NCBI GenBank assembly: GCA_964387685.1
Contig: CAYLXK010000024.1
Location: 7,149-71,148 of the forward strand
Length of the DNA stretch: 64,000 bases
Source: an uncultured Bryobacter sp.
GTDB taxonomy: Bacteria > Acidobacteriota > Terriglobia > Bryobacterales > Bryobacteraceae
Direction: 5' to 3'
Made by a program: the position numbers and the translations under genes. The notes under the pieces are model-generated. The model did not search any database. It worked only from the letters and a program-made list of their open reading frames with translations, and was not told the DNA's origin. This document shows, piece by piece, positions 36,233 through 51,225 of the stretch. Position 1 is the first letter of the stretch; every line of letters begins with the position of its first letter.

Positions 36233-36242
36233 CGAGCGCTTG

Positions 36243-36258: not shown

Positions 36259-36283
36259 GCCGGGGCTGAGCTAAGGTTTGGGG

Positions 36284-38554
36284 ATGAGCTCCGAAGGCGA
36301 GAGGCGGCACCGCTGGCGAATGCGCGTCAGGGGGGTGGTGCAGGGAGTGGGATTCCGGCCTTTCGTGGCGCGGCTTGCGGGGGAACTCGGGCTGGATGGC
36401 TGGGTGCGCAATCGGACCGGGGCGGTGGACCTAGAGGTGGAGGGAAGTCTTGCGGCACTGCGGCGCTTTCAGGAACGGATGGAGGAGGAAGCACCGCCGG
36501 CGGCCACGATTGAGCATGTGGAGAGGGAGGACTGCAGCGTCACAGGAGCGCCGGGCTTTCAGATTGGCTCGAGCCTGGAAGGCGAGAGCCAGAGTGGCGG
36601 CCTGCCGGCGGACTTGTCGATGTGCGAGGAGTGCCGGCGAGAGCTGGGCGATCCAGGGGATCGCCGTTACGGTTATGCGTTTTTGAACTGCACGGCGTGT
36701 GGGCCGCGTTATTCGATTGTGCGGGCCTTGCCCTATGACCGTGTGCGCACTTCGATGGACGTGTTTCCGCTTTGCCCGCGGTGCCGGGAGGAGTATGAAG
36801 ACCCCCGGGATCGGCGCTACCATGCGGAGCCGATCGCTTGCCCGCAATGTGGTCCGCAACTGGAGTATGCCGGAACAGTGGAAAAGTCAGCAGGGACGGC
36901 GGTTGAACTGGCGGCGGAGGCGCTGCGGGCGGGCCAAACGGGAGCGATCCAAGGAATTGGCGGCTTTCATCTCGCGGTGAATGCGCGCGACGGAGCGGCG
37001 GTGGGACGGTTGCGGGAGCGCAAAGGGCGGGGCGAACAGCCTTTGGCTTTGATGGTGCGTGATCTGGCGACGGCGAGGGAGTTTGTGGAGCTGGATGAGC
37101 AGGCGGTGGGACTGCTAAAGGCGTCGAGTGCGCCGATTGTCCTGTTGCCCAAGAGGGGGCTGACGCAGGTGGGGGAGGCTCTGGCGCCGGGGAACGGGTA
37201 CCTGGGCGTGTTGCTTCCGTATAGCCCGATGCACTGGCTGCTGCTGCATCAGGAGGAAGACCTGGATGCCTTGGTGATGACGTCTGGCAATCGGCATGGG
37301 GAGCCGATGGCCACGAGTAGGCAGGAGGCGAGGGAGAAGCTGGGGGCGTTGGCGGATTTTTTTCTCACGCATAACCGGGAGATTGTGGCGGCGGCGGACG
37401 ACTCTGTGGTGCGGCTGTATCGAGGGAGGGCGCTGGCGATCCGGCGGGGGCGGGGATATACCCCGCTGATGTTGCAGATTCCGGTGGAAGGGGGAACGGT
37501 GGTAGCGGCGGGGGCGGAACTGAAGGCGGCGGTGGGAGTGGCGAAAGGAGAGCGGGTGTGGCTGGGGCCGCACTTAGGGGATGTGGAGAATTTGGCGACC
37601 TTGGAGGCATTGGAGAAGAATGTGAATCACCTGAGCGGCTTGTTTCGGGTGGAGGCCGAAGCGGTGGTGCACGATGCGCATCCGGGCTACCTGTCGACGG
37701 AATGGGCCCAGCGCTATGCGGCCAAGAGGGGAATTGTGGCTTGGGGGGTGCAGCATCACCGGGCGCATGTTGCTTCCGTGCTGGCGGAGTATGGCGTGGG
37801 GCCGGAGGAGCGAGTGGTGGCGGCGGTCTTTGATGGGACGGGCTATGGGGACGACGGCGCGATCTGGGGTGGGGAGTTCTTTTGTGGACCGGTGGCGGCG
37901 CTGAAACGGCGAAGGCATTTGCCCTATGTGCTGCTGCCCGGGGGCGATGGGAGTGCCAGAAGGCCCGCGCTGGCCGCGGTGGCGCACTTGGCGGCGTGCG
38001 GAATCGACTGGGAGGATACGGCGGCCGGGCGAGGGCTGGGGGCGGTGGAGAAGAGTTTGCTTGCGCGGCAGATGGAGCGGGGATTCCATTGTCATGCCAC
38101 GTCGAGTATGGGAAGACTGTTCGATGCGGCGGCGAGCCTGCTGGGGGTGCGGCAGCGGATTCGGTACGAGGCGCAAGCGGCCATCGAGATGGAGGCCCGC
38201 GCGGCGGCCTGGGGCAGGGAGGAGAGCTACGGGGCGGGGTTGTGGCGACTGGACGAACTGTGGCGGGAGTTGTTGGACGATGGAGCGGAAATAGAAGCGC
38301 GGGCGCGGCGCTTTGGGGGATGCGTGACGCGCTGGACGATGGAGACTGTGACGAATTTGTGTGCCGGGGAGGGATCGGAGACGGTGGTGCTGGCGGGCGG
38401 GGTATTTCAGAACGTGTTGCTGCTGCAGGAGCTAACGCGAAAGCTGGAAATGGCGGGATTGCGGGTATTAGTGCCGCGCTGGTTGCCGCCCAACGATGGA
38501 GGTCTGGCGCTAGGTCAGTTGTACCTGGCGGCAACCCAGTGCGGGCCACGCTAA
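36284..38554 (+). CDS. hypF: [NiFe] hydrogenase maturation carbamoyltransferase HypF
   Basis: Acylphosphatase RVRGVVQGVGFRPFV. Two zinc-finger pairs CxxC-x18-CxxC (CEEC...CTAC; CPRC...CPQC). YrdC-like and Kae1-like regions. ATG 36320 is an alternative start. Confidence 0.9.
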   Translation: MSSEGERRHRWRMRVRGVVQGVGFRPFVARLAGELGLDGWVRNRTGAVDLEVEGSLAALRRFQERMEEEAPPAATIEHVEREDCSVTGAPGFQIGSSLEGESQSGGLPADLSMCEECRRELGDPGDRRYGYAFLNCTACGPRYSIVRALPYDRVRTSMDVFPLCPRCREEYEDPRDRRYHAEPIACPQCGPQLEYAGTVEKSAGTAVELAAEALRAGQTGAIQGIGGFHLAVNARDGAAVGRLRERKGRGEQPLALMVRDLATAREFVELDEQAVGLLKASSAPIVLLPKRGLTQVGEALAPGNGYLGVLLPYSPMHWLLLHQEEDLDALVMTSGNRHGEPMATSRQEAREKLGALADFFLTHNREIVAAADDSVVRLYRGRALAIRRGRGYTPLMLQIPVEGGTVVAAGAELKAAVGVAKGERVWLGPHLGDVENLATLEALEKNVNHLSGLFRVEAEAVVHDAHPGYLSTEWAQRYAAKRGIVAWGVQHHRAHVASVLAEYGVGPEERVVAAVFDGTGYGDDGAIWGGEFFCGPVAALKRRRHLPYVLLPGGDGSARRPALAAVAHLAACGIDWEDTAAGRGLGAVEKSLLARQMERGFHCHATSSMGRLFDAAASLLGVRQRIRYEAQAAIEMEARAAAWGREESYGAGLWRLDELWRELLDDGAEIEARARRFGGCVTRWTMETVTNLCAGEGSETVVLAGGVFQNVLLLQELTRKLEMAGLRVLVPRWLPPNDGGLALGQLYLAATQCGPR

Positions 38555-38563
38555 ACTTTCGAG

Positions 38564-39946
38564 GTGTCCTTGCCCCCGCAACTTTCGCTTGCCATTGTGG
38601 ACGATAACCTGGACAGCCTGGAGCTCATGCAGGAGGCACTGCACGAGGAAGGAATCGAGGTTCACTACTTCAGCGTGCCTGAAGAGGGGCTGGAGTTCAT
38701 TCTGCAAAAGCGGCCGCAGATCGTTATGACGGACTTGGTGATGCCGCGCCTGGACGGTATGGCCATGCTGGATCGCATCATGGCGGTGGATCCGACGATC
38801 GATGTGATCCTGATGACCGCCTACTATTCGACGGAGTCCGCGGTGGAGGCGATCCGGAAGGGTGCGACAGACTATCTGGACAAGCCGATTTCCGTAGAGA
38901 CGTTGCGCAAGAGGGTGGGCAATTTAGCGCGGATGCATCGGGCGAGATTGCGGGCGCTGGATCCGCAACAGAACTACCCAAATGGCCACGAGTTTGAAGG
39001 GATGATCGGCAATAGTCCGGAAATGTGGAAACTCTACGCGCAAATCCAGCGGGTGGCGCCGCATTTTCGGACGTTGCTGGTTCAGGGAGCGACCGGGACC
39101 GGTAAGGAACTGGTGGCAAGAGCGCTACATCGTTTAAGCGGAGTGCGGGGAGAGCTGGTGGCGCTGAATTGCTCGGCGGTGGTGGAGACGTTGTTTGAGA
39201 GCGAGCTATTCGGGCACGTGAAGGGGGCCTTCACGGGAGCGACGGGAAACAAAACGGGCCTGTTTGAGCACGCGCACGAGGGTACCCTGTTTCTCGACGA
39301 GATTGGGGATATGCCGCTGGCGACGCAAGCCAAGCTGTTGCGCGCGGTGCAGCATCAGGAGGTGCAGGCCTTGGGGGCGCTAACGGCGCGGAAGGTGGAG
39401 GTGCGGGTGATTGCGGCCACGCACCGGGATCTGCGGGCGATGATTCTGGAAGGACGATTCCGCGAAGATTTGTTTTACCGTTTGGCGATGGTGGAGTTGC
39501 ATGTGCCGAGCCTGCTGCAGCGCAACGGGGATGTGGAATTGCTGGCGCGTAGCCTGACGCGGAAGTGGGCTAAACAATATGGGCGGGAACTACAGGGTTT
39601 GACGCCCCGAGCCATGACGGTGTTGAAGCGCCATTTGTGGCCGGGCAACGTGCGGGAACTGGAGAACGTAATTGGGCACGCGGCGATGATGACGCGGGGG
39701 CCGCAAATTGATGTGGCGGATTTTCCGGGATATTTGATTCGGGGCGAGCCAGGAATGGGCGAAGGGAAGCGGCGCGCGGGGGCCGGGGAGGACGCGGGCG
39801 GCCTGGCGGGTCTGGCGGAGCGGGAAAAGGAATTGCTGGTTGAGGCCTTGAATAAGAGCGGAGCCAACCAGAGCCGCGCGGCCCGGATTCTACAGATTAG
39901 CCGGGATAAGCTGCGCTACCGGATGAAGAAGTACGACCTGGACTAG
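38564..39946 (+). CDS. Sigma-54-dependent NtrC-family response regulator (HupR/HoxA-like position)
   Basis: Receiver ([13 protein letters not shown]). AAA+ ([27 protein letters not shown]). Fis-type HTH ([21 protein letters not shown]). GTG start 9 nt after the hypF stop. Confidence 0.85.
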
Positions 39947-39983
39947 GGGGCCAGGCTAGGGGGGCGAGGCTAGGGGGGCGAGG

Positions 39984-41900
39984 TTAACGGCCGAGGTGCA
40001 GGCCGACGGTAATTTGCTGCACGCCAAAGGCCTCGTATGCGAATAGGCTTTGGCCGTAAGAGATGTTACGCCATTCGGCCAGGAAGCCCAATTGGGAATG
40101 GAGGGGGATGCGCAGACGGCCCAAGGGTTGGTAGTAGCGGCTGGGGCGGCTGCCGGAGGAGCGAAAGACACTGCCGCCGAGCGTGAGGAGGCTGTGGCGG
40201 GGGAGGCGCAGGTCTGCGGCGAGAGTGCCGGTGTGTGCGTTGTCGCGGTAGAGGCTGCGCTCGGGATCGTAGCCGACGGGGTCAAGATAGGTGAGGTCGG
40301 AAAAGATGGTGGAGCGGGTGTAGTCCGCCATGACGGAGAAGGCTTTGCGGGTCCACTGGAGAGTGAGGTTGGATTGCTGGGAACGGAAATCGAGACCGAC
40401 GCCCAGGGTGGGATTGGAGTTGTTGAGGCGCACGAAGCGGGAATTGAGCTGCCAGGAATCGGAAATCTGGTAGCGGGCGCGCAGGCGGAGTTGTTCAAAG
40501 TTTTGGAGGCTAGTGCGGAAGTAGGTTTGATCGCCGCGGCCGACTTCGGTTTCGGCATTGAAGGTGAGCTTAGTAGTGGGCCGGAAGACGAAGCCACCCA
40601 GGGCGGAATGGCGGCGAAGCGCGGCGCCTTCGAGGACGGGGCCGGGAGCGAGCGAGGCGCGGCGCACCTCGGAGTCTCCCCAGAGAAAGCGGTGGCCGCC
40701 AAAGAGGGTAAAGCGCTTGCTGAAGTCGTAGAAGACCTGGAGGCGCTGTTCGTTTTGCCGCCAGATGAGGCGGTCGTTGGAATTGACCGGAGGCAGCGAG
40801 CGCGCGTCTACGGTGCTCTGGAGGAAAAGCGAACCCGCGTTGTGGGTGCGTTCGATTTGCCAGGAATCGAGGACGCGCAGGCGCGCCAGGGGCCGGACTT
40901 CGAGGGTGAGGCCGCCGGCGGTCCTGGGCTGGCTGGCATAGCCGGTGGCGAGGGATTGTTGGCCGTTAACGAAACGCAAAGTGTCCAGGCGAAGGATCGT
41001 GCCTTGCGCGGACTCATTGAACGTGACTTCGGAGCGAGGGCGGGAATAGTAGAATTCGGCGCTGATGTCGAGCCAAGCGAGGGGAGAGAGGGTGAGGTCC
41101 GCGGAGGAGTAGATGTGCCCACCGTTCACGTCATAAAGCTGCGTGGCGCGGTCTATGAGGAGAGGGCGGCCGAAGTAAGTGGATTCTCGATTGCCGGTGT
41201 TGCGCAGGGTGTTAACGAGAGAGCTTTCATCGCGGAAGCGGGCGCCGCCTTGTTCGAGGGAGAGGTGGAGCTTTTCCAGTTCCAGGCGCAGGCCACCGCG
41301 TACGACGGTGTAGCCGTAATCGATGCGGCTGGCGGCGGGGTAGCTGTTTTCGTCGAGGACGAAGGGGCTGACGCCGGAGCCGAGGCCCGTATTCTGAGCG
41401 ACGCCGAAGAAGGGGGTCCAGCGGCGGCCGGGAAGGAAGTCGAAGTCGGCGTTCCAGAAGCGCTGGCGGGTATCGGTGGCGCGCTGGTTGGTGGTGTAGG
41501 CCTCGGGGCCGAGCTTGGCGAGTTGGGGACTGGCGAAGGAAGGCAAGGCGTTGAAATAGGCGAGGTTGCGGTAACTGAAGGTGGCCCGGTAGAGGGCGGA
41601 CTTTTCCGCATTTAACAGAAAGGTGTTAAGAGGGTCGCCCCAGTTGGCGCCATGGAGGCGCAGCTCATCGAGAAAGGCGAAGGAAGGGGGCTTGTAGGTG
41701 GTCTGGAACTGGAGCAGGCGAGGACCTTCGCCGAGATTGACGATGCTGCGATAAGTGTTAAAGCTGCCGTGCTGGCCGGCAAGGGCGCGGTAGCCGATGT
41801 CGCTGGAGGCTTGGAAGGGGGATTCCGCAGGCGTGGGGGCCGCGGCTGGCTCCTGGGGGTGCATCAGGACGGCAAGGAGGAGGGACGCGAGGAGTCTCAT
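39984..41900 (-). CDS. MtrB/PioB-like outer-membrane beta-barrel (porin partner of decaheme cytochrome)
   Basis: 638 aa. Short signal peptide. Alternating hydrophobic/polar beta-strand pattern throughout with Y/F/W/R-rich girdles. ATGA overlap with the MtrA-like gene. The call rests mainly on size, composition and synteny. Confidence 0.6.
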   Translation of the reverse strand: MRLLASLLLAVLMHPQEPAAAPTPAESPFQASSDIGYRALAGQHGSFNTYRSIVNLGEGPRLLQFQTTYKPPSFAFLDELRLHGANWGDPLNTFLLNAEKSALYRATFSYRNLAYFNALPSFASPQLAKLGPEAYTTNQRATDTRQRFWNADFDFLPGRRWTPFFGVAQNTGLGSGVSPFVLDENSYPAASRIDYGYTVVRGGLRLELEKLHLSLEQGGARFRDESSLVNTLRNTGNRESTYFGRPLLIDRATQLYDVNGGHIYSSADLTLSPLAWLDISAEFYYSRPRSEVTFNESAQGTILRLDTLRFVNGQQSLATGYASQPRTAGGLTLEVRPLARLRVLDSWQIERTHNAGSLFLQSTVDARSLPPVNSNDRLIWRQNEQRLQVFYDFSKRFTLFGGHRFLWGDSEVRRASLAPGPVLEGAALRRHSALGGFVFRPTTKLTFNAETEVGRGDQTYFRTSLQNFEQLRLRARYQISDSWQLNSRFVRLNNSNPTLGVGLDFRSQQSNLTLQWTRKAFSVMADYTRSTIFSDLTYLDPVGYDPERSLYRDNAHTGTLAADLRLPRHSLLTLGGSVFRSSGSRPSRYYQPLGRLRIPLHSQLGFLAEWRNISYGQSLFAYEAFGVQQITVGLHLGR

Positions 41901-42883
41901 CGCAAGAAGTCCCGGCTAATGTGAGAGCCATGCACCTTGGAGTGGCACACCGTGCAGTTTTGGTAGACGGGCAAGCGCAGGTCGTGAAAGCCGGTGGGAA
42001 CGGTTCCAAGCGTGCCGGAGCGGTTAGAGAGGGCAGGGGTGTTGGCGTGGCATTCGAGACAGAGGTTGCTGACTTGGGCGCGATTCAGAAGGCGGGGATT
42101 GGCCGAGCCATGATTCTCGTGGCAAGCGGAGCAGCCTTCGAGGCGAATAGGGGCGTGCTCAAAGACGAAGGGACCGCGCTTGTCGGCGTGGCACTTGAAG
42201 CAACCGGGTTCGGCGTTCGTGGTGCGGGCGGTAGTGTTAAGGCCGAAGGGCCGTGAAGTGCCGTGGGGATTGTGGCAATCGATGCAGGACATGGCGCCCG
42301 CGGGGACGGCGTGGCCATGGGGGCGCTGGAAGGAAGCCCAGGCGCTGGCGTGGCAGGTGGAACAGAGTTCATTGACGCGCGTGGCCCGGGAGGTAGGAAG
42401 AGCCAAGCGGCTCAGTGACGCGGGGGATTGAGGCGTGAAATCCCGAAAGAGGGGAACGGAGGAATCGTTTAAGGCATGGTGAACCGAGTGACAAGAGACG
42501 CAGGAGACTTGTACCTTGGCGTGGGAACCGCTGATGCGGCCGGCGTGGGTGGCCTGATTCTTGTGGCAGGACAAGCAGGAAGAGTCCGCCTCGCGGGGCG
42601 TGGCTTTGCTGTGATTGAGAATGAACTTGGCTTCGGCGGCTTCGCCGTGCTTTAAGCCCGGCCCGTGGCAGGATTCGCAGGACTGGCCTTTCCAGCCGCG
42701 GACGGTGTCCGTTTCCACTTTGCCGTGGCGAGATTTCAAGAAGGCCTTGCCGAGGTCCTCATGGCAAACCAGGCAGGCTTCGGTGCCGGCGTAGCCCTCT
42801 TTGTCCGTGCGCGCTTTTTTGGGCGCAGCGAAGGTGGCGGCAGCCAGCACAAAGAAAATCGCCGAGGCGACCAGGGGCCGCAT
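41897..42883 (-). CDS. MtrA/DmsE-family periplasmic decaheme c-type cytochrome
   Basis: 328 aa, signal peptide, ten CxxCH sites. Blocks collinear with Shewanella MtrA as I recall it: CESCHGPGLKH, CIDCHNPHG, CFKCHADKRGPFVFEHAP...CSACHENHGS...CLECHA, and C-terminal CTVCHSKVHGS. Confidence 0.85.
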   Translation of the reverse strand: MRPLVASAIFFVLAAATFAAPKKARTDKEGYAGTEACLVCHEDLGKAFLKSRHGKVETDTVRGWKGQSCESCHGPGLKHGEAAEAKFILNHSKATPREADSSCLSCHKNQATHAGRISGSHAKVQVSCVSCHSVHHALNDSSVPLFRDFTPQSPASLSRLALPTSRATRVNELCSTCHASAWASFQRPHGHAVPAGAMSCIDCHNPHGTSRPFGLNTTARTTNAEPGCFKCHADKRGPFVFEHAPIRLEGCSACHENHGSANPRLLNRAQVSNLCLECHANTPALSNRSGTLGTVPTGFHDLRLPVYQNCTVCHSKVHGSHISRDFLR

Positions 42884-42884
42884 G

Positions 42885-44924
42885 CTATTGAGCGTGAACT
42901 CTGGCCACGGAGAACTCGGCGTTGGGGCCGTGGCAGACGGTGCAGCTCTCCCCCAGCGGCGCGGTGTTCAGTTGCGCGTGGGCCGCCGCCTCCTTGGAGG
43001 TGTGGCAACTGAGGCAGGCGGCCGAGGTGGCCCCGGGCGTGGTCAGCCAAGCTCGCGGGTCCGTGACGGGCAGCAGATTTGGCCGCAGGGGCAGGTTCTG
43101 CGAATTATTGACGTGGCAGGTGCTGCAATTGGCGGCGGTGGTGGGGAAGCCGATGTTACTGAAGTCGTTGACGGAGGCGTTAAAACCGTAAATGATGAGC
43201 GGCCGGCCCTGTTCCTTGCCGGTATGGATCCGGTGGATCATCGAGGCAAAGCTGATGCTTTCATTGGGGGCCTGGGCGGCGGGACGGCGAGCGGAGTCCG
43301 TCATGGTGGAGTTGTGGCAAACAACGCACTCGGAAATTTCATTGCGGTTGCGGCCGTGGGCTTCGATGCGCGTGTGGCAGACATTGCACTTCTCGGTGGT
43401 TACGACTTGGCGACGGGGCTCGACCCGGGAAGAGTCCACGCTGAAATAGGTAATGACATTTTTGAGGGGATCGCGGACGGTGGTGGGAATGCGGCCGGGA
43501 CCTTCAAAAGAAACGTTGCGGTAGCCTTCGGCGCTGATGGAGTAGGTGCCCTGGGCGTCGCTGGGGATGGCGCGAGCAAAGCGGTGCGACGCGGTGCCGC
43601 TGGGGGAAAGGGTATCGGTGCGGGAGGCTTCCGACCAGTACGCGGTGTAATCGGGCGCGGGCCCGGCGAGAATGAGCGAAAGCGCCGTCATATCTGTTGG
43701 GGCAAGAATCTTGCCTTCGGAATCCTTGAGGCGATAGGTAATCGTCGGGTTTTGGCCGGGCGCGGTATCGCGTACCTCAAGCAGCTCGATCGTCTGGCCT
43801 TTGAGATTTTTCGAAAACTCGGGAACGACATGGGCGCCCTTGACGGAGATATCCCACTCGCGTTCTCCCTCGGGCCGGTGGCACTGGGAGCAACGGGAAT
43901 CGTCGGTCTGGGCAATGTGACCTTTGCCGGCGGCGAAATCAATGCCGTCGTGGCAGGAGCCGCAAGCGGCGCGGGTCGGGTTAAACAGGGCCGTGGCCTG
44001 GGACGCCGCGTTGGGGCCGGATTGGGTATGGCAAGCGGCACAATTGCGTGGGTTGGCCGGGAAGCCGATGGTGGAGTAATCGTGAAGGGTCTGCTGGTTT
44101 CCGATGATGGTGTACTTCGTGCCGGCCCGGACGCTGGGCAGATCCTTACCCATGTGGATCTTATGGGTCAGCACGGTCATGTCGACGGTATTGCCGGTGT
44201 CGGGGTCTACGGTTTGGGGGGTATGGCAGAGAACGCACATTTCCATGCCGCGGCGGGAGCCGCCATGGGCGGATAGCGTCACGTGGCAGGTTGTGCACGA
44301 AGCGGTTTTGATGACGTCGCGCACCTGAGTGACAGGGCTGCCGTCGGGGACGAAATCGAAGGTGGCGCTGGCGTAGTTGGTGCCGAGGTCGAAGGCGGTG
44401 AGGTTACGGTTGGAGTAGGCCCCAATAGTGTGAGTAGCGGTGCGGTCGAAATTGGCGGGGGCGCGGGTGCGGAAGGTGTAAGTGTACTCGCCGTCGTCGT
44501 TCTTGACCCAGGTGCCACCGGTGTCGGCGGCCGCCTGCGTGGCCGAGACGCGGGTAATGGGACTGGTTTGGATGCGCGTGGTGTAGGAGGTGTAAACGGA
44601 TTGATCTTTGGGCAAGAAGGCGGCGACAAAACTGATGGAGACGGGGCCGGGCGTGAAGACGCCTTCGCGGTCGAGAGGAACCCCCAAGGGATCGGTGATG
44701 CGGACCCGCGCCGCCATCGAGCCGTCGGGATTGACGACGGCGGCGACGATCTTCAAGTTAAGGCCCGGCCGGACGAAATTGATCGTCTTTTCGTCGGCGT
44801 AGAAGGCCTTCTCCAGTTCGCTGAAACTGCGCTTGCCCAGGCCTGTGGCGAGAGAGGCGGCGGCGAGAAGCAGCCCCACGACGGTGGGCCAGAAGTATCG
44901 ATGGGTTCGAAAAAACATGCTCAT
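42885..44924 (-). CDS. MtrC/OmcA-like decaheme c-type cytochrome (5+5 heme architecture)
   Basis: Ten CxxCH in two clusters of five (ORF residues 269-408 and 572-724), each preceded by a 160-210 aa heme-free region. Paralogous halves (THKIHMGK / IHRIHTGK). Start MSMFF overlaps the upstream stop (ATGA). ATG 44918 is an alternative start with GGAGGA 5 nt upstream. Confidence 0.65.
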   Translation of the reverse strand: MSMFFRTHRYFWPTVVGLLLAAASLATGLGKRSFSELEKAFYADEKTINFVRPGLNLKIVAAVVNPDGSMAARVRITDPLGVPLDREGVFTPGPVSISFVAAFLPKDQSVYTSYTTRIQTSPITRVSATQAAADTGGTWVKNDDGEYTYTFRTRAPANFDRTATHTIGAYSNRNLTAFDLGTNYASATFDFVPDGSPVTQVRDVIKTASCTTCHVTLSAHGGSRRGMEMCVLCHTPQTVDPDTGNTVDMTVLTHKIHMGKDLPSVRAGTKYTIIGNQQTLHDYSTIGFPANPRNCAACHTQSGPNAASQATALFNPTRAACGSCHDGIDFAAGKGHIAQTDDSRCSQCHRPEGEREWDISVKGAHVVPEFSKNLKGQTIELLEVRDTAPGQNPTITYRLKDSEGKILAPTDMTALSLILAGPAPDYTAYWSEASRTDTLSPSGTASHRFARAIPSDAQGTYSISAEGYRNVSFEGPGRIPTTVRDPLKNVITYFSVDSSRVEPRRQVVTTEKCNVCHTRIEAHGRNRNEISECVVCHNSTMTDSARRPAAQAPNESISFASMIHRIHTGKEQGRPLIIYGFNASVNDFSNIGFPTTAANCSTCHVNNSQNLPLRPNLLPVTDPRAWLTTPGATSAACLSCHTSKEAAAHAQLNTAPLGESCTVCHGPNAEFSVARVHAQ

Positions 44925-46318
44925 CCTCCAAGTTCCTGTATTGCCTTCAGATTCTTCTCTTCGACGCCCAGGACCTTGTGGCAGGCCTCGCAATCCTGGG
45001 TAATGGCTTTGCCGGGCGTTTTTGCCTTCAAGTCGTCGCCATGACAGCGGAAGCAACCGGGTGAGGCCGTGTGCCCGACATGTTGGGGATAGGTTCCCCA
45101 AGTGATTTTCATTTCCGGAAAGACGTTGCGGCGGTGGAGTGTGGCCAGTTCCTGGCTGGCTTGGCCGAGCGTGGAGGCGTGGGTCGCGAGGGCCGCCGGT
45201 TGATGAAGGCGGTAGTAGCGATTCAGCTCCTCGGCGATGGCTTTAGAGGGGTCGGGCTTGGAGGCGTAGTCTTTGGCCAGGACTTCCAAGGCGGCCCGAC
45301 GGAAGAAAGGAATCGATTGGGGAAGCCGGCCCTGGGTCATGGCGAGATCGATGGCCCGTTCAGGATTCTCAAATTCATGGGCGGGCCGATTGTGGCAATC
45401 GAGACAATCCATGCGCCGGCTAAAGGCGGCTTTGGCTTTGCCCGAGCTAAAGTCGGCCGACTCATAGGTGTCGGTTTGACCTCCCTTGGTCACGCGAACG
45501 GCCAGGATGGTTTCGCGCTTAGGGTCGGCGGCGTCATAGTCGATGCTCAGGCCGCGGCCCATGTGGGCGCCGTGAATGCCTTGGCCCTCGGCGCCCCCCA
45601 GTTTTAGCAGTAGCGCGGTCTCCAGGCGTTCGCCCTGGTCGTCGAACTGGGTGCGCCGCCAGAGGCGATTGCCGTAGTCGTGATTGCGGGAGTGGCAGTT
45701 CTCACAGGTTTCCGAGGCCGGTTTGAGGGCATGAGGTGGAGAGGGAATGGGACGGTTGTATCCGCCGGTCATCACGAGAAAGAGTTGCCGGGTTCCATTG
45801 AGCTTGGCGCGGATGGCGTTGCCCGCGCCTTCGCCAATGTGGCAGGCGACGCATTTAACTTGCGCATGGGAACCAGCCTGATAGGCGCGATGTTCGGGAT
45901 CCATGACATGGCAAGCGGTGCCGCAGAAGTTGGTGCTCTCCATGTAATGGACGGCCTGGTAGGTAAGCGCCCCGCCGATGACGAGATTGACAAAGGTTGC
46001 TCCCGCGATAAAGACGAGAAAGCGCCGGATCTTGGGGTTGCTGAGCTCGATTTTTTCCGGCCAGTGGATTTGGTGATCCGGGGCCTCGCGCCGGCGCTGC
46101 ATGCTGATGCCGATGGGCACCAGGAGGAGCCCTAGGAAGAAGGCGGCGGGTAGAGCGACAAACTGGAGAATGCCGAGGTATCCGGAGGCCTCGCTCGCGC
46201 CCGTCAGGAAGATCCAGAGGACCATAGCCGAAAGCACGAAGAAGAAGCCGGTGCGGCTGATCCAGTTGTCGGTTAAATAGAGTACCGGCAAGAGCCAGCG
46301 CTGTGCGAATTTCCCCAT
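44921..46318 (-). CDS. Membrane-anchored NapC/NirT-like multiheme cytochrome (candidate quinol dehydrogenase)
   Basis: 465 aa with three N-terminal TM helices. NapC-like TNFCGTACHVM...SHAQVKCVACH. Five CxxCH (CVACH, CENCH, CLDCH, CFRCH, CEACH) plus one CxxxCH (CGTACH). Confidence 0.7.
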   Translation of the reverse strand: MGKFAQRWLLPVLYLTDNWISRTGFFFVLSAMVLWIFLTGASEASGYLGILQFVALPAAFFLGLLLVPIGISMQRRREAPDHQIHWPEKIELSNPKIRRFLVFIAGATFVNLVIGGALTYQAVHYMESTNFCGTACHVMDPEHRAYQAGSHAQVKCVACHIGEGAGNAIRAKLNGTRQLFLVMTGGYNRPIPSPPHALKPASETCENCHSRNHDYGNRLWRRTQFDDQGERLETALLLKLGGAEGQGIHGAHMGRGLSIDYDAADPKRETILAVRVTKGGQTDTYESADFSSGKAKAAFSRRMDCLDCHNRPAHEFENPERAIDLAMTQGRLPQSIPFFRRAALEVLAKDYASKPDPSKAIAEELNRYYRLHQPAALATHASTLGQASQELATLHRRNVFPEMKITWGTYPQHVGHTASPGCFRCHGDDLKAKTPGKAITQDCEACHKVLGVEEKNLKAIQELGG

Positions 46319-46357
46319 TTTGCGTGTCTGAAGTTTGCGTGGTCCGAGGGAATTGGA

Positions 46358-46675
46358 CTATTGCTTGAGAGTGCGGACGTAGGCCAAGATGTTGGCGACA
46401 TCCTTTTCGACGGCGGGCATGGCCTTCATCTTGCCGACGCCTTCGAGGGTTTCTTTCTTCAGGGCAGCGTCGGACTTAGCCTGGACCTCTTTCGAGCCGA
46501 GGTGCTTCATTTCGACCTTGAGCATTTTGCCGATGGCGGCGTTGGGGGCGCCGTCGGCGCCATGGCACTTCTTGCAGGCGGCGTCATAAGCGGTCTTACC
46601 GGACGCCAAGTCGGCGGCGGAGGCCAAAGCGGACACCCAGACGAGAGAAAGCAGCAAGGGCAGAGTTCGTTTCAT
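46358..46675 (-). CDS. Periplasmic monoheme class I cytochrome c
   Basis: 105 aa from ATG 46675. Signal MKRTLPLLLSLVWVSALASA. Single CKKCH. Distal Met candidate in GKMKAMP. Confidence 0.8.
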   Translation of the reverse strand: MKRTLPLLLSLVWVSALASAADLASGKTAYDAACKKCHGADGAPNAAIGKMLKVEMKHLGSKEVQAKSDAALKKETLEGVGKMKAMPAVEKDVANILAYVRTLKQ

Positions 46676-46687
46676 CGCGGCTCTACA

Positions 46688-46703
46688 AGCAAGTGAGTGG
46701 CCA
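46688..46703 (-). promoter_or_regulatory. Sigma-54-like -24/-12 element upstream of the cytochrome operon (weak; implies a near-leaderless mRNA)
   Basis: The minus strand reads TGGCCACTCACTTGCT with correct GG-N10-GC spacing. The GC lies only 13 nt before the ATG. Confidence 0.2.
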
Positions 46704-46766
46704 TTCAAAAGTAGCTGGAAAGTTGAAGCTTGACGATAGTTGGGTGGGGGAAAATACACAAAGATT

Positions 46767-46780
46767 GGGGAAAATTCCCC
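46767..46780. promoter_or_regulatory. Inverted repeat GGGGAA-aa-TTCCCC in the divergent control region (candidate activator site)
   Basis: 6-bp arms with a 2-nt spacer, preceded by a partial direct copy TGGGGGAAAAT. Located about 60-75 bp upstream of the hyaA sigma-54-like promoter. Confidence 0.25.
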
Positions 46781-46840
46781 AAGCGGGAAATCGTTTAGTG
46801 GAGAACAGGGGCAATCTCGCAGAGAGAAGGAGGTTTTTAT

Positions 46841-46856
46841 TGGCCCCCTGATTGCA
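46841..46856 (+). promoter_or_regulatory. Candidate sigma-54 (-24/-12) promoter for the hydrogenase operon
   Basis: TGGCCCCCTGATTGCA against the consensus TGGCAC-N5-TTGCA. About 28 nt upstream of ATG 46885, with AAAGGAAG as RBS. Confidence 0.45.
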
Positions 46857-46884
46857 CAGTAGGGACTGGCTGAAAGGAAGTGGA

Positions 46885-48000
46885 ATGATGCTGGCCACCG
46901 CACCCGCTTCAACGTCTCAAGTTCTTCAACGGCGAGGAATTAGCCGCCGCGACATACTCACTTTTTGCACTATGACGGCCGCGTCCCTCGGCCTGCCCCC
47001 GGAGGCGGCGGCGCAAATCGCCGAGGCGCTGGAAACAAAGCCGCGCATCCCGGTGCTTTGGATTCATGGGTTGGAATGCACGTGTTGCAGCGAATCGTTT
47101 CTGAGGTCGACGCACCCGGTTGCGCAGGACATTCTGTTCAACATGATTTCGCTGGATTATGACGACACGCTCCAGGCCGCGGCGGGCCATCAGGCCGAAG
47201 AGATCCGCAAGCGAATCATGAAGGAGTACAAAGGCCAATACCTGCTGGCGGTGGAAGGCAACGCGCCTACCAACGACGGGGGCGTCTATTGCACGGTGGG
47301 CGGCGAAACGTTTACGAGCATTCTGGAAGAGGCCGCGGCGGGCGCCAAGGCCATCCTGGCCTGGGGCAGCTGCGCGTCCAACGGATGTGTGCAGGCGGCT
47401 TACCCAAACCCGACCGGCGCGAAGCCCGTGTACAAGATGATCACCGACAAGCCGGTCATCAACGTGCCCGGATGCCCGCCGATTGCGGAAGTGATGACCG
47501 GGGTATTGAGCTATCTCCTGACCTTCGACCGGATTCCGGAACTGGATGCGTTCCGGCGGCCGAAGATGTTTTACGGGCAGCGGATTCATGACCGCTGCTA
47601 CCGAAGGAGCTACTTTGACGCGGGGCAATTTGTTGAGAAGTGGGACGACGAGGGGGCGCGGAAGGGTTGGTGCCTTTACAAGATGGGGTGCCGCGGTCCG
47701 TCAACCTACAATGCCTGCGCTTCGATGAAGTGGAACGAGTGTGTTTCGTTCCCGATCGGTTCTGGGCATGGCTGTTTCGGATGCTCGGAAGACAATTTTT
47801 GGGATAACGGACCGTTCTATGAGCGCTTGGCGAATATTCCGGTGCCGACCACGGACCTGACGGCGGACCGGGTAGGTCTGGGCTTGAGCGCCGTGGTAGC
47901 CGGGGCGATTGCCGCGCATGGAGTGGCGGCGCTAGCCAAACACAATCTGACGCAGATCAAAGCAGCCCCCGCAAGCAGTACGACGAAGCCGGAAGCCTAG
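46885..48000 (+). CDS. hyaA: [NiFe] hydrogenase small subunit, group 1 (Hyd-1/MBH-like), Tat signal, C-terminal TM anchor
   Basis: [12 protein letters not shown] Tat motif. [33 protein letters not shown]-terminal helix [20 protein letters not shown]. Near-collinear with E. coli HyaA as I recall it. Confidence 0.9.
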
Positions 48001-48009
48001 GAGCCAGCT

Positions 48010-49737
48010 ATGTCTACCCGAGTCGTAGTAGACCCGATTACCCGCATTGAAGGACATCTGCGGGTGGAAGCGATCCTGAACGATCGGAATGTGATTGGCG
48101 ACGCCTTGTCCAGCGGGACGATGTGGCGCGGGATCGAATTGATTGTGCAGGGGCGGGACCCAAGAGAGGTATGGGCCTTCGCCGAACGGATTTGCGGGGT
48201 GTGTACGACGATCCACGCGCTGGCCAGCGTGCGCAGCGTGGAGAACGCGCTCGGAATCGAGATCCCGAAAAACGCAAGCATTATCCGCCAACTGATGAAC
48301 TTTACGCAGATCGTGCAGGATCACGTGATTCACTTTTATCACCTGCATGCGTTGGACTGGGTGGATGTGGTGTCGGCGCTGAAAGCGGATCCGGCGGCGA
48401 CCTCGGCGCTGGCGCAGAAGGTGTCGCCGCACTGGCCCAAGTCCTCGCCGGGCTACTTTGCCGATACGGCGGCGACGTTGAAGAAGTTTGTCGATTCCGG
48501 TCAACTCGGTATCTTTCAGAATGCCTACTGGGGCCATCCCGCCTACAAGCTGCCGCCAGAGGCGAATCTGATGGCGGTGGCGCACTATCTCGAAGCGCTG
48601 CAGTGGCAAAAGGAAGTGGCCAAGATCCACACGGTATTTGGAGGCAAGAATCCGCATCCCAACTATCTGGTGGGGGGCGTGGCGTGCGCGATCAGTCTCG
48701 AGGGCGACAACGCGCCGATCAATATGGAGCGGCTGAATTTTGTCAAGGATCTGATCACGGAAGCGATCCGGATCGTCGAGCAGCTTTATATTCCGGACCT
48801 AGTGGCGATCGCGAGCTTTTATCCGGAATGGACGAAGATCGGCGGGGGGCTGGGTAGCTTCATGTCCTACGGCGACATGCCGACGGACTACGATTTGGGC
48901 AATCCGTCGAAGTTCCGTTTTCCGCGCGGGGTGATTCTGAACAAGAAACTGGGCGAAGTGCTGCCGCTGGACCTGGCGGACTTTGGCCAGGTGCAGGAGG
49001 AGGTGACGCACTCCTGGTACGAGTACGGGAACGGGAAGCAGACCTTGCACCCATGGGAAGGCGAGACGAAGGCAAAGTATTCGGGGCCGAAACCGCCTTA
49101 TAAGCAATTGGATGAAACGCAAGGATACTCCTGGGTGAAGACCCCTCGCTGGCGAGGGCACGCGGTGGAAGTAGGGCCGCTGGCGCGGATGGTGATCGGC
49201 TATGCCTCGGGCAATGGGCCGATTCGGGATGCCGTCAAGTGGGGATTGGAGACGACGAAATTGCCGATCGAGGCGTTGTTTTCGACACTCGGACGGACCT
49301 TTGCGCGGGGCCTCGAGACGAAGCTGGCCGTGCACTGGATGAGGGACGAGTTCAACAACTTGATGGCGAATCTGAAAGCGGGCGATTTGACGACTGCGGC
49401 GACAGCGAAATGGGATCCGTCCAGTTGGCCGAAGGAGGCCAAGGGAGTGGGCTTTGTGGAGGCGCCGCGCGGCTCGTTGGGACATTGGATCCGGATCCAG
49501 GATCAGAAGACGGCGTCCTACCAGATCGTGGTGCCGTCGACATGGAACGCCTCGCCTCGCGATGCCAAGGGCCAGCACGGCGCCTATGAGGCTGCGCTGA
49601 TTGGCACGCCAATGGTGGACGGGATGAAGCCCGTCGAGATACTGCGGACGATTCATTCGTTCGACCCCTGCCTGGCCTGCGCGACGCATGTAATGGGCGC
49701 GGGCGGTGAAACCCTGGCCAAGGTAATTGTGCGTTAG
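48010..49737 (+). CDS. hyaB: [NiFe] hydrogenase large subunit, group 1
   Basis: VVDPITRIEGH. L1 motif ERICGVCTTIH. L2 motif SFDPCLACATH followed by a 15-aa tail for endopeptidase cleavage. Confidence 0.95.
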   Translation: MSTRVVVDPITRIEGHLRVEAILNDRNVIGDALSSGTMWRGIELIVQGRDPREVWAFAERICGVCTTIHALASVRSVENALGIEIPKNASIIRQLMNFTQIVQDHVIHFYHLHALDWVDVVSALKADPAATSALAQKVSPHWPKSSPGYFADTAATLKKFVDSGQLGIFQNAYWGHPAYKLPPEANLMAVAHYLEALQWQKEVAKIHTVFGGKNPHPNYLVGGVACAISLEGDNAPINMERLNFVKDLITEAIRIVEQLYIPDLVAIASFYPEWTKIGGGLGSFMSYGDMPTDYDLGNPSKFRFPRGVILNKKLGEVLPLDLADFGQVQEEVTHSWYEYGNGKQTLHPWEGETKAKYSGPKPPYKQLDETQGYSWVKTPRWRGHAVEVGPLARMVIGYASGNGPIRDAVKWGLETTKLPIEALFSTLGRTFARGLETKLAVHWMRDEFNNLMANLKAGDLTTAATAKWDPSSWPKEAKGVGFVEAPRGSLGHWIRIQDQKTASYQIVVPSTWNASPRDAKGQHGAYEAALIGTPMVDGMKPVEILRTIHSFDPCLACATHVMGAGGETLAKVIVR

Positions 49738-49746
49738 GAGCGGCTT

Positions 49747-50487
49747 ATGTCCTCACAAATTCAGGACCCGCAGACTCAAGCCATGGCCGCGCCGGGCGAG
49801 GCGGAAAGGCCGGAATCCCGCTACGTGTGGGAGAGCCCGGTGCGGATCTTTCATTGGATGATTGCGCTGGCGATTCCCGTGCTGCTGGCCACGGGCTTTT
49901 ATATAGCCTGGCCTTTTGCCTCCGTGCAGGGGGAGGCGACGGGAAACTTCTTGATGGGGAGGATGCGGCAGATTCATTTTGGGGCGGGCTACGTGTTGCT
50001 GGCCGCGTTTGCCATTCGGATTTACTGGTTTTTTGCGGGCAATCATTATGCGCGGTCGGGTTTTCCCTTCGTCTGGAAGAAGGCCTGGTGGACGCATCTG
50101 GGCGAGCAGGCGCGCGAGTACCTCACAATTCGCCTCACGAAGCGCTTTGTGGGCCACAACCAGTTGGGCGCCTTGAGCTACCTGCTCTTTGTGGGACTCA
50201 TGGGCGGCGCAGAAATCGCCACCGGCTTTGCGATGTATAGCGAATCGAATCCGGGAGGATTCTGGAGCCGGGTCTTCGGCTGGGTGATTCCGTTCTGTGG
50301 CGGTTCCTATCAAACCCACCAATGGCATCATTTCTTTGCCTGGGGCATTCTGCTGTTTATTGCGATTCACATTTATATCGTGGTGCTGGACAGCATTTAC
50401 CTCGATAACGGAATGGTGGGCAGTATCTTTACCGGACGCAAGTTTGTAAGGAGCACGGATGCCGACAGCAAGACCTGGATCAGTTAA
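49747..50487 (+). CDS. hyaC: Ni/Fe-hydrogenase b-type cytochrome subunit
   Basis: PVRIFHWMIALAIPVLLATGFYI. Four TM helices with conserved His (HFGAGY, HQWHHFF). Confidence 0.85.
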   Translation: MSSQIQDPQTQAMAAPGEAERPESRYVWESPVRIFHWMIALAIPVLLATGFYIAWPFASVQGEATGNFLMGRMRQIHFGAGYVLLAAFAIRIYWFFAGNHYARSGFPFVWKKAWWTHLGEQAREYLTIRLTKRFVGHNQLGALSYLLFVGLMGGAEIATGFAMYSESNPGGFWSRVFGWVIPFCGGSYQTHQWHHFFAWGILLFIAIHIYIVVLDSIYLDNGMVGSIFTGRKFVRSTDADSKTWIS

Positions 50488-50965: not shown

Positions 50966-51225
50966 CGATACCGGGGCAGGTGATGCGGATCGAGGAGATT
51001 GGCTTCCACCGGGTAGCCCAGGTCTGCTTTGGCGGAGTGGAGCGGCCGGTGTTTGTGGATTTCGTGCCCGAGGCGGTAGCGGGCGACTATGTGCTGGTAC
51101 ACGTGGGCTTCGCGCTCAGCAAGATCGACGAAGAAGAGGCCAAGGCGAGCTTCGCATTAATGGAACGACTGGGATTCATGGAGCCGCTGGACGAGGCCGA
51201 AGAAGTGACGCAGGAGGACCCATGA
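50956..51225 (+). CDS. hypC: HypC/HybG/HupF-family hydrogenase chaperone
   Basis: [10 protein letters not shown]-terminus with the essential Cys2. 89 aa. Confidence 0.9.

Follow-up and report, generated by a model that had tools for sequence, protein, structure and literature searches.

The mtrC gene of this Bryobacter operon encodes a genuine member of the OmcA/MtrC family: its ten hemes are grouped 5+5, and its fold has the four domains typical of these proteins. Its product is probably the outermost component of an Mtr-type conduit through the outer membrane, where it would be kept at the surface by contact with MtrAB, some shedding being possible. It lacks a lipobox. Judged from the homologs, this absence is real and extends over the clade of Bryobacterales and Acidobacteriota; it is not peculiar to the Bryobacter gene. 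The partners of such a conduit are encoded next to mtrC within the window, by which we mean the entire 64-kb stretch of DNA that was analysed.

Hemes, fold and start of the cytochrome

The mtrC product contains exactly ten CxxCH motifs. They begin at residues 210, 230, 295, 321 and 345 and, after a gap, at residues 513, 533, 600, 637 and 661. Each cluster of five follows a heme-free segment, residues 1-209 (a signal peptide of about 26-30 residues included) and 350-512, respectively, as the original prediction had it. That the two halves are paralogous had been read from shared motifs, and all of these are in place: THKIHMGK at 253 corresponds to IHRIHTGK at 563, NCAACH at 294 to NCSTCH at 599, and the x15 spacing occurs in each half. 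BLASTP aligns one half with the other over 182 residues at 30% identity (E = 3e-22). Eleven histidines outside the motifs are invariant in an alignment of 51 sequences, a number that would suffice, as candidate distal ligands, for bis-His ligation of all ten hemes.

Family membership is clear. A search with TIGR03507, the OmcA/MtrC family model that had been proposed as a check, yields 478.3 bits, where 209.3 would be enough, and covers positions 5-672 of its 672, i.e., practically the full length. PF22113 is matched twice, once by domain II and once by domain IV. By sequence the protein matches MtrF (3pmq, 6e-33) as well as OmcA and MtrC, and the ten heme motifs pair one-to-one with those of MtrF.

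The AlphaFold (AF2) model (pLDDT 87, pTM 0.79) has the order beta/heme/beta/heme, and thus the two beta and two pentaheme domains that had been postulated. In Foldseek it matches OmcA (1.7e-29), MtrC, UndA and MtrF over its full length, with E values of 1e-24 to 1e-29 and TM scores of 0.60-0.70; nothing else is comparable. The four-domain fold, which is the basis of the staggered-cross arrangement of hemes, is accordingly present in the predicted structure. In this the protein resembles MtrC, MtrF, OmcA and UndA of Shewanella (4lm8, 6qyc, 3pmq, 4lmh, 3ucp), in which each of two pentaheme domains likewise follows a beta domain. The identity to these proteins is, however, only about 18-21%, and the conserved cysteine pair that forms a disulfide in domain III of Shewanella MtrC and OmcA is missing. 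A CX5-6C pair near residues 441-447 is found in about 20 of the 120 best homologs, which are acidobacterial, but not in the protein discussed here.

The start of the gene needs a correction. A GGAGG abuts the first ATG and lies 6 nt before the second one, at 44918, and an identical public protein (P0001) begins at this second ATG (677 aa, MFFRT...). The true start is probably the ATG at 44918 and the true product 677 residues long. The gene upstream ends in ...GGAGGATGA, which overlaps the first ATG of mtrC; with the second ATG, the junction probably becomes stop, 2 nt, start. Of the ATGA coupling claimed in the original prediction, the tight coupling of the two genes thus survives, whereas the overlap probably does not. 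At the other end, the spacing of a single nucleotide to the mtrA-like gene is as described: a single base separates the stop codon TAG from the next ATG. Residue numbers of the mtrC product, here and in the table, count from the first ATG.

Features of the mtrC region, with positions in the window
Feature	Positions	Strand	Remarks
NtrC-type sigma-54-dependent response regulator	38564..39946	+	receiver, Sigma54_activat and HTH_8 domains; adjoins barrel gene
Divergent MtrB-like outer-membrane beta-barrel	39984..41900	-	638 aa; recognised by homologs, profile comparison and fold
MtrA/DmsE-family periplasmic decaheme cytochrome	41897..42883	-	328 aa; ten CxxCH; 1-nt gap to mtrC
mtrC, MtrC/OmcA-family decaheme c-type cytochrome	42885..44924	-	679 aa from first ATG
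Domain IV of mtrC product, pentaheme, hemes 6-10	42888..43397	-	aa 510-679; paralog of domain II; PF22113 at 505-677
Domain III, heme-free beta domain	43440..43796	-	aa 377-495; AF2 strands; no non-heme Cys
Domain II, pentaheme, hemes 1-5	43830..44306	-	aa 207-365; PF22113, PF14522, PF09699; motifs one-to-one with MtrF
Domain I, heme-free beta domain	44352..44759	-	aa 56-191; AF2 strands only, pLDDT >90; matched to OmcA and MtrC domain I in Foldseek
Clade-conserved mature start KAFYADEKTINFVRPGL	44760..44810	-	aa 39-55; replaces lipidated Gly-rich linker of proteobacterial MtrC
Sec-type signal peptide without lipobox	44838..44924	-	about aa 1-29; MSMFFRTHRYF-WPTVVGLLLAAASLATGL
ImcH-like inner-membrane multiheme quinol oxidase	44921..46318	-	465 aa; three TM helices, one CX3CH, five CX2CH
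Monoheme class-I cytochrome c with signal peptide	46358..46675	-	105 aa; first gene of operon; PF00034, PF13442
Sigma-54-like -24/-12 element TGGCCACTCACTTGCT	46688..46703	-	2 mismatches; just upstream of operon
Second sigma-54-like site TGGCCCCCTGATTGCA	46841-46856	+	1 mismatch; faces hupS
Group-1-type membrane-bound [NiFe] uptake hydrogenase	46852..50487	+	small subunit, large subunit, cytochrome b; divergent from operon

The missing lipobox and the way out of the cell

The original prediction rightly denied the protein a lipobox. All of its 20 cysteines are heme cysteines and none precedes the first heme, the first one being residue 210, so there is simply no residue that could be lipidated in the canonical way. 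In this respect it differs from the Shewanella proteins: instead of a lipobox and a Gly-rich lipidated linker, it has a signal peptide resembling type I and a mature start of the form KAFYAD...FVRPGL. The lipobox, which gives the Shewanella proteins their lipid anchor in the outer membrane, does not belong to the definition of TIGR03507. In the AF2 model, residues 11-26 of the signal peptide form a helix. Candidate sites for signal peptidase I, derived by rule, are AAA|S and SLA|T.

The nearest relatives are found in metagenome-assembled genomes of Bryobacter and other Bryobacterales, with up to 82% identity. Among the best 120 homologs and the Bryobacterales loci (41-82% identity) nearly all lack a lipobox. 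The canonical L-A-G-C is retained in relatives from Proteobacteria and Chloroflexi; the lipobox is also missing in about 40% of diverse representatives of the family.

This mature start is conserved in the clade. In the alignment of 51 sequences F50, R52, P53 and G54 are invariant, and A40, Y42, V51 and L55 nearly so. Residues 27-43 are modelled with low pLDDT despite the conservation. It is tempting to regard the motif as an element that docks to the barrel. Yet it occurs in all acidobacterial homologs, those without adjacent mtrAB included, so that this view is weakened and no specific docking function can be assigned to the motif.

How does such a protein get out? Pfam scans of 40 neighbouring ORFs revealed no type II secretion genes within the 64-kb window. 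The only lipobox-less MtrC homologs that we found in the literature are engineered Shewanella constructs. In S. oneidensis, the type II system still exports OmcA and MtrF deprived of their lipobox, and both proteins are then recovered from the supernatant (PMC6929479). Since export thus survives the deletion, the likeliest state of the Bryobacter protein would be a non-lipidated, exported one, which is then held by MtrAB through protein contacts and/or partly released. The expectation that both anchoring and export would have to differ from the Shewanella scheme thus holds for anchoring but need not hold for export. The constructs of Dietrich et al. 2019 (PMC6929479) are in fact of the same kind, decaheme cytochromes of the MtrC family with a signal peptide and no lipid anchor, though engineered there and natural here. 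Whereas those constructs appeared in the supernatant, compensating contacts with MtrAB may have evolved in the natural acidobacterial protein.

Operon partners and neighbourhood

The operon runs from the monoheme cytochrome c via the ImcH-like quinol oxidase, mtrC and mtrA to the divergent MtrB-like barrel. A scan for internal sigma-70 promoters and terminators found none above chance. With its MtrA homolog and its MtrB-like barrel, the operon repeats the order mtrC-mtrA-mtrB of the Shewanella Mtr system (complex 6r2q), and synteny of the mtr cluster extends to at least 30 loci of Bryobacterales.

MtrA poses no problem. Its product matches TIGR03508 with 226.6 bits (cutoff 192.2) and chain A of 6r2q, the MtrA of the solved complex, with E = 1.5e-34. 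The barrel is more demanding. No Pfam model is matched even at E <= 10, PF11854 (MtrB_PioB) included, with which proteobacterial MtrBs score 408-458 bits, and the NCBIfam models are not matched either. Its likeness to MtrB had therefore to be established through homologs, profile-profile comparison and fold. Fifteen out of 51 barrel homologs, 37-75% identical to the barrel of the window, do match PF11854. With a proteobacterial MtrB profile, hhalign aligns 502 columns at E = 3e-5. The AF2 model (pLDDT 87.6) has about 26-28 strands, and its best Foldseek match is MtrB itself (6r2q_B, E = 1.2e-14, TM 0.69); 22-strand TonB-dependent receptors remain below a TM of 0.5. The barrel is homologous to MtrB and, according to the model, shaped like it. 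It differs from its Shewanella counterpart in falling below the threshold of Pfam MtrB_PioB, and the inner-membrane partner also differs, being ImcH-like instead of CymA.

ImcH, the inner-membrane quinol oxidase that serves Geobacter with high-potential acceptors, has been defined by three TM helices at the N-terminus, an atypical CX3CH alongside and five to nine CX2CH motifs (PMC6295460). The protein encoded upstream of mtrC fits this published definition. It has hydrophobic segments at 23-41, 53-71 and 100-118, a CGTACH at 132 and then five CxxCH. With Geobacter ImcH it shares the CX3CH by the third helix and the NapC/NirT-like similarity around this helix and the first hemes; NapC/NirT (PF03264) and NrfH are matched at residues 101-211. 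Five CX2CH plus FCGxxCH are found in all of its 120 best homologs. In public databases these are called only 'NapC/NirT family cytochrome c', and none is labelled ImcH. Our designation "ImcH-like" follows from the architecture read from the sequence. The monoheme cytochrome c at the head of the operon, starting with the ATG at 46675 as judged from the sequence, resembles small soluble cytochromes c of the PDB and is kept upstream in related loci.

The operon lies inside an island for a [NiFe] uptake hydrogenase, with hyp and hup maturation genes on both flanks. The hydrogenase is recognised by PF14720/PF01058, PF00374 (757 bits) and PF01292, and its small subunit carries a twin-arginine motif. 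Its adjacency to the operon is kept in loci L002, L003, L012, L013 and L031. The NtrC-type regulator at the other end keeps its position in L002, L003, L011, L012 and L031. Two sigma-54-like sites in the divergent intergenic region are backed by their position and by the adjacent gene for a sigma-54 activator. They are only suggestive, since 22 such sites occur in the window and 29.8 are expected from shuffled sequence, i.e., the count is lower than expected.

Clusters of this kind are not new. Acidobacterial mtrCAB was published as "Group 5" (Acidobacteriia/Bryobacterales) by Baker et al. 2022 in mBio (PMC8805035), and a Mtr-like conduit of Bryobacterales appears as "EET2" in a 2026 preprint (bioRxiv 10.64898/2026.05.27.727921). 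The taxon and the core of mtrC, mtrA and barrel are the same, and the cluster of the window belongs to this already described group. The main texts of these two papers mention neither lipoprotein status nor type II secretion. Differences concern the surroundings. Group 5 clusters were described as having no nearby inner-membrane quinol oxidoreductase and a tetraheme gene downstream of mtrB (PMC8805035); here, mtrC is preceded within its operon by the genes for a monoheme cytochrome c and the ImcH-like protein, and a sigma-54 regulator is encoded downstream. Similarly, a survey of 2018 saw mtrAB adjacent to no imcH (PMC6295460), whereas the imcH-like gene of Bryobacter is directly coupled to mtrCAB.

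Probable electron path, competing views and meaning

In the path that we consider probable, the ImcH-like quinol oxidase would take up electrons from the quinol pool, which the adjacent uptake [NiFe] hydrogenase, among others, would feed. The electrons would then cross the periplasm, perhaps with the monoheme cytochrome as carrier, to MtrA threaded through the MtrB-like barrel. The MtrC-like protein would finally reduce extracellular acceptors, e.g., Fe(III) or Mn(IV) oxides, humic or particulate organic matter. Fe(III) reduction by an isolate of the Bryobacteraceae, Paludibaculum fermentans, is on record as a citation in PMC8787282. As to its biogenesis, the MtrC-like protein would be exported by Sec, cleaved by signal peptidase I and loaded with heme in the periplasm; its most likely route across the outer membrane would be a type II system. 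Not being lipidated, it could be retained at the surface only by binding to the MtrAB proteins, and part of it may be shed.

The conduit could be the same and the cytochrome nevertheless be mostly released after type II secretion, as a soluble or matrix-bound extracellular carrier instead of a cap fixed to MtrAB. Lack of an anchor is conserved throughout the clade, and many of its members are encoded by orphan genes without adjacent mtrAB, which would suit a free carrier. However, the strict coupling to mtrA and mtrB in one operon and the synteny in most loci point to a stoichiometric complex, and a free 70-kDa protein with ten hemes would be costly in dilute freshwater habitats. We consider predominant release unlikely.

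It is much less probable still that the cytochrome never reaches the surface, but stays tethered to the inner membrane by an uncleaved signal or dissolved in the periplasm, to store electrons or to relay them from the ImcH-like protein to MtrA. The absent lipobox and the lack of secretion genes nearby in the 64-kb window would fit. So would a hydrophobic stretch of 19-20 residues. Moreover, many clade members have a proline directly after the obvious ...SA cleavage site, at +1, where it disfavours signal peptidase I, so that an uncleaved signal anchor is conceivable for the family. Yet the hydrophobicity of segment 11-29 (Kyte-Doolittle 1.68) does not exceed that of the ordinary signal peptides of the operon partners (1.94 in the MtrA-like protein, 1.78 in the monoheme cytochrome c), and good sites of the AXA type are available. 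In its fold, the order of its domains and the layout of its hemes the protein agrees with surface cytochromes, the gene order is that of the solved Mtr complex, and for a periplasmic relay the monoheme cytochrome is at hand.

Equally improbable, in our opinion, is a conduit working inward like Mto or Pio, in which the cytochrome would be a cap that collects electrons for the quinone pool, their source being Fe(II), reduced humics or a cathode. The neighbouring hydrogenase is of the H2-uptake type, thus a supplier of electrons and not a sink, and we know of no MtrC partner in the iron-oxidising MtoAB and PioAB systems. Of course, conduits of the Mtr type are reversible and have homologs that serve Fe(II) oxidation (PMC6295460), and the monoheme cytochrome that heads the operon recalls the mtoD of betaproteobacterial clusters (PMC8805035). 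The only role so far attributed to ImcH homologs, however, is the oxidation of quinol in Fe(III) reducers (PMC6295460).

That the missing lipobox merely reflects a wrong start, or that a non-canonical acylation or sorting signal is used, is hardly credible: a minority of the clade (L016, P0076, P0082) does show L-L/V-G-C around residue 23, but the Cys-free N-terminus is common to more than 100 independent homologs, the only longer reading of mtrC (from TTG 45101) overlaps the upstream gene and adds sequence that is not signal-like and has no lipobox, and the protein ends 14 residues past the histidine of the tenth heme motif, which leaves no room for a C-terminal sorting domain.

Bryobacterales abound in soils, peat and humic lakes, and Mtr-like clusters have been invoked for anaerobic carbon turnover where dissolved acceptors are scarce. 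Whether a surface cytochrome is anchored by a lipid, held by protein or shed alters the reach of electrons from the cell and also the choice of assay, i.e., of cells or supernatants. The barrel adds a practical aspect: as it escapes the standard MtrB model, clusters of this kind are probably overlooked by surveys that demand a match to the MtrB/PioB HMM, among them the search of 2022 for clustered mtrCAB. The window may be read as a compact wiring diagram from H2 via hydrogenase, quinol pool, ImcH-like protein and MtrA/B to MtrC.

A bolder generalisation is offered with considerable reserve. Acidobacterial MtrC proteins might be naturally anchor-free, having lost an ancestral lipobox, and be secreted as shed or loosely bound carriers; in Bryobacter, MtrC might be the last component of a self-contained module under sigma-54 control, made up of uptake hydrogenase, ImcH-type quinol oxidase, MtrAB and MtrC itself. 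If this were true, the module would couple H2 oxidation to extracellular reduction of iron or humics in lakes and peat. It would also combine inner-membrane components of the Geobacter type with outer-membrane components of the Shewanella type, a combination absent according to two surveys. Taken together, the findings refine the current understanding and do not overturn it. The mtrC product is an ordinary member of its family, encoded in a complete cluster for electron export.

An OmcA/MtrC-family decaheme cytochrome

The open reading frame of the mtrC-like gene encodes 679 residues with exactly ten CxxCH motifs. All 20 cysteines of the protein reside in these motifs; hence there is no Cys before heme 1 and no lipobox. 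The translation thereby confirms the two five-heme clusters and the missing lipobox of the original prediction, and every motif quoted there is found. The two halves, which had been considered paralogous, share 30% identity over 182 residues (BLASTP, E = 3e-22).

The proposed search of TIGR03507 (OmcA/MtrC family) yielded 478 bits against a cutoff of 209, with the whole profile covered, and the Pfam model of MtrC/MtrF domain II/IV matches twice. Among solved structures, sequence matches are seen to MtrF (6e-33) and also to OmcA, MtrC and UndA; ten of ten heme motifs pair one-to-one with those of MtrF in the alignment. The AlphaFold2 model, built from an alignment of 51 homologs (pLDDT 87, pTM 0.79), contains two beta and two pentaheme domains. 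Searched against the PDB with Foldseek, it strongly matches only OmcA (1.7e-29), MtrC, UndA and MtrF, with full-length TM values of 0.60-0.70. The anticipated domain plan is thus present in the predicted structure. Outside the CxxCH motifs, 11 histidines are invariant in the 51-homolog alignment, a number that suffices for bis-His ligation.

The HMM score, the number of hemes, the motif alignment and the fold all place the protein in the OmcA/MtrC family. It differs from the Shewanella archetype in lacking both the lipobox and the Cys pair of domain III, neither of which belongs to the family definition. A CX5-6C pair in domain III (about residue 441-447) that resembles the Shewanella disulfide occurs in about 20 of the 120 closest homologs (P0047, P0054-P0060, P0073, P0077, P0078, P0091, P0094, P0101-P0104 and others in the public collection), whereas the MtrC-like protein and its close clade are devoid of it.

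The start of the gene deserves a remark. The upstream gene terminates ...GGAGGATGA, and GGAGG lies directly against the first ATG but 6 nt ahead of a second one (44918), where an identical public-collection protein of 677 aa (P0001) begins. Because of this spacing and the start of P0001, the second ATG is probably the true start and the junction probably reads stop, 2 nt, start. Of the ATGA coupling originally proposed, the tight coupling therefore stands, while the overlap itself probably does not. A longer reading from TTG 45101 was discarded; it overlaps the upstream gene and gains nothing signal-like.

Features of the mtrC-like locus (window positions) and of the MtrC-like protein (residues)
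Feature	Position	Strand	Remark
[NiFe] uptake-hydrogenase island	35177-53392
NtrC-type activator gene	38564-39946
MtrB-like barrel	39984-41900	-	638 aa; homologs, profile-profile comparison, fold
MtrA/DmsE-family decaheme	41897-42883	-	TIGR03508 226.6 bits vs cutoff 192.2
MtrC-like protein	42885-44924	-
Inner-membrane multiheme protein, ImcH-like	44921-46318	-	465 aa
Monoheme class-I cytochrome c	46358-46675	-
Sigma-54-like -24/-12 element	46688-46703	-	outward-facing; divergent region between cytochrome operon and hupS
Sigma-54-like -24/-12 element	46841-46856	+	outward-facing; same region
CxxCH, first five	residues 210, 230, 295, 321, 345
CxxCH, second five	residues 513, 533, 600, 637, 661
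Beta domain (AlphaFold2)	residues 56-191
Heme domain (AlphaFold2)	residues 207-365
Beta domain (AlphaFold2)	residues 377-495
Heme domain (AlphaFold2)	residues 510-677

Operon partners and the hydrogenase island

The mtrC-like gene is the third of five tightly packed co-directional genes, and a sequence scan for internal promoters or terminators in the operon revealed none standing out. Its TAG is separated from the ATG of the mtrA-like gene by a single base, as had been noted. The mtrA-like product matches chain A of the solved Mtr complex (1.5e-34).

The barrel is less easily recognised. It has zero matches in Pfam (including PF11854) and NCBIfam even at E <= 10, where proteobacterial MtrBs score >400 bits. 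PF11854 is matched by 15 of 51 sampled homologs, a comparison of its profile with that of proteobacterial MtrB gave E = 3e-5 over 502 columns, and the top structural match of its AlphaFold model (pLDDT 87.6, about 26-28 strands) is MtrB of 6r2q (E = 1.2e-14, TM 0.69), TonB-dependent receptors staying at TM <0.5. As judged from these homolog, profile and model comparisons, it is a divergent MtrB. HMM surveys requiring an MtrB match would probably miss this type of cluster. Homologs of the barrel are labelled 'hypothetical protein' in public records.

In the 465-aa protein, an atypical CX3CH (CGTACH) and five CX2CH motifs come after three hydrophobic helices, and similarity to NapC/NirT and NrfH is seen around helix 3. 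Zhong and Shi (PMC6295460) define ImcH by precisely this architecture, and five CX2CH plus FCGxxCH are found in 120/120 best homologs. With an ImcH-like partner in place of a CymA-type quinol oxidase, and with a barrel too divergent for the MtrB model, the MtrC-like protein again departs from the Shewanella archetype. The 2018 survey described mtrAB adjoining no imcH (PMC6295460), and Baker et al. saw no inner-membrane quinol oxidoreductase near the acidobacterial "Group 5" clusters (PMC8805035), whereas here an ImcH-type gene is directly coupled to mtrCAB in one operon; the arrangement is found again in the related loci L001-L014 and L031. In a further locus an mtrC homolog adjoins a gene for 877 aa and 17 hemes (L024:6618, +) that starts with an ImcH-like N-terminus; its product resembles the quinol oxidase fused to additional multiheme domains.

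The operon (-) is located inside a complete [NiFe] uptake-hydrogenase island, being preceded by hypB, hypA (-), hypF and a sigma-54 response regulator (+) and followed by hupS, hupL, cytochrome b, a maturation protease, hypC, hypD and hypE (+). Five related MAG loci display the same neighbourhood, and the adjacency to the hydrogenase is conserved in L002, L003, L012, L013 and L031. A hydrogenase is also near in the more distant loci L037, L050, L057 and L058. This arrangement suggests H2-driven extracellular respiration. The two sigma-54-like elements, with an NtrC-type activator gene close by, are only suggestive as promoters, since the count of such matches window-wide is not above chance.

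The region also shows a strong strand-asymmetric GC skew (about 26000-58000, up to +0.30 overall), largely independent of gene orientation. At third positions, most plus-strand genes from hypF through hypE have a skew of +0.25 to +0.52, with lower values for hupS and hupC, while minus-strand genes range from -0.34 to -0.62. The sign changes near 25 kb and the skew fades past 58 kb; it is shared by the closest relatives (L002, L013) and absent from distant ones. It might reflect a replication-related switch, an inversion or the boundary of an island.

Proposed electron path, export and retention

The operon would encode an outward conduit. Quinol would be oxidised by the ImcH-like protein, electrons would cross the periplasm via the monoheme cytochrome and/or MtrA, the latter seated within the MtrB-like barrel, and the MtrC-like protein on the outer face would reduce insoluble or polymeric acceptors. 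The adjoining H2-uptake hydrogenase with its cytochrome b could be one electron source. We give little weight to inward flow through the same conduit; ImcH homologs have so far been tied only to outward flow (PMC6295460).

In hydrophobicity, the N-terminal segment of the MtrC-like protein does not exceed the signal peptides of its operon partners MtrA and monoheme cytochrome, and it offers AXA-type sites (AAA|S and SLA|T); both features make cleavage by signal peptidase I likely. It had been argued that anchoring and export must differ from Shewanella, or that the protein may be released. For anchoring a difference is expected, as the lipidation signal is missing. Export, however, need not differ: in Shewanella the type II system still secretes lipobox-deleted OmcA and MtrF, which end up in the supernatant (PMC6929479).

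If not lipidated, the protein would have to be retained through contacts with MtrAB. A non-lipidated, exported cytochrome mainly held on MtrAB is the reading we lean towards, if with reservation. Partial release is plausible; a protein mainly released appears rather unlikely next to its co-encoded MtrA and barrel. Retention in the periplasm or inner membrane is improbable for a member of this family with likely cleavage sites, and so is a hidden anchor.

Lipobox state across the family

The best homologs stem from Bryobacter, Bryobacteraceae and Bryobacterales MAGs of lakes, peat, soil and groundwater (<=82% identity), and most of their loci keep the synteny of the cluster. Of the 120 best homologs (52-100% identity), nearly all lack a Cys before heme 1, as do Bryobacterales loci down to 41% identity. 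The lack of a lipobox, as read from these N-termini, is therefore neither peculiar to this gene nor due to a mis-called start. Throughout the clade, the n-region is basic, the hydrophobic core spans 15-20 aa and the c-region consists of small residues; the start of the mature protein is conserved as F/Y-T/S-x-x-D/E-K-A-F/Y-Y-A-D ... N-F-V-R-P-G-L. Within the core, L-L/V-G-C occurs in a small subset from Solibacteraceae, with ambiguous meaning.

Nearly all readable proteobacterial homologs (Burkholderiales, Woeseiaceae) and 4/4 Chloroflexi homologs have a canonical L-A-G-C lipobox, after which comes a Gly-rich or collagen-like linker. A rough neighbour-joining tree, midpoint-rooted and without support values, places the lipobox-bearing genes of Chloroflexi as sister to the acidobacterial clade and the Proteobacteria outside; parsimony thus suggests that the lipobox was lost at the acidobacterial base. 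The Dehalococcoidia/Chloroflexi MAG loci L053, L054, L074 and L078 contain stand-alone MtrC-like decahemes (about 40% identity to the MtrC-like protein; sister to the acidobacterial clade in the rough tree) with no adjacent mtrA or barrel.

The group has been published as "Group 5" MtrCAB (Baker et al. 2022, PMC8805035) and as "EET2", a Mtr-like conduit of Bryobacterales transcribed in peat (bioRxiv 10.64898/2026.05.27.727921). A further paper describes mtr homologs as common among Acidobacteria and notes iron reduction by Paludibaculum fermentans, an isolate of the Bryobacteraceae (PMC8787282). The main texts of PMC8805035 and the preprint mention neither lipoproteins nor type II secretion. 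Recognition of the anchor-less state as clade-wide, the imcH-like gene sharing an operon with mtrCAB and the embedding in a hydrogenase island go beyond these descriptions; they are refinements, not surprises.

HMMER, run over 1.84 billion cluster representatives, retrieved 2814 family members, of which the best 150 provided 108 full-length representatives (Met start, >=600 aa, >=9 hemes); classes were assigned by rule, and metagenomic N-termini can be mis-called. A lipobox is found in 62, an acidobacterial-type N-terminus without one in 14, another N-terminus without one in 30, and two are ambiguous. In 41 of the 62, collagen-like G-X-Y repeats directly follow the lipobox Cys (Chloroflexi, Woeseiaceae and others, e.g., L053:2210, L054:7524, L074:695, L078:6609, L060:3152, L061:3595, P0385, P0389, P0433, P0444; up to about 34 overlapping runs); they may form a stalk, perhaps trimerising, between lipid anchor and cytochrome. 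In P0392, P0395, P0408, P0409 and P0447, most without lipobox, the signal peptide is followed by a dockerin/EF-hand-like motif (ADLDQSGFVDAxDLLxFxxxW), which hints at yet another means of attaching the cytochrome extracellularly. Among these 108 representatives the anchor-less share of the neighbouring family diversity is about 40%; the lipid-anchored state of Shewanella is, thus, not universal.
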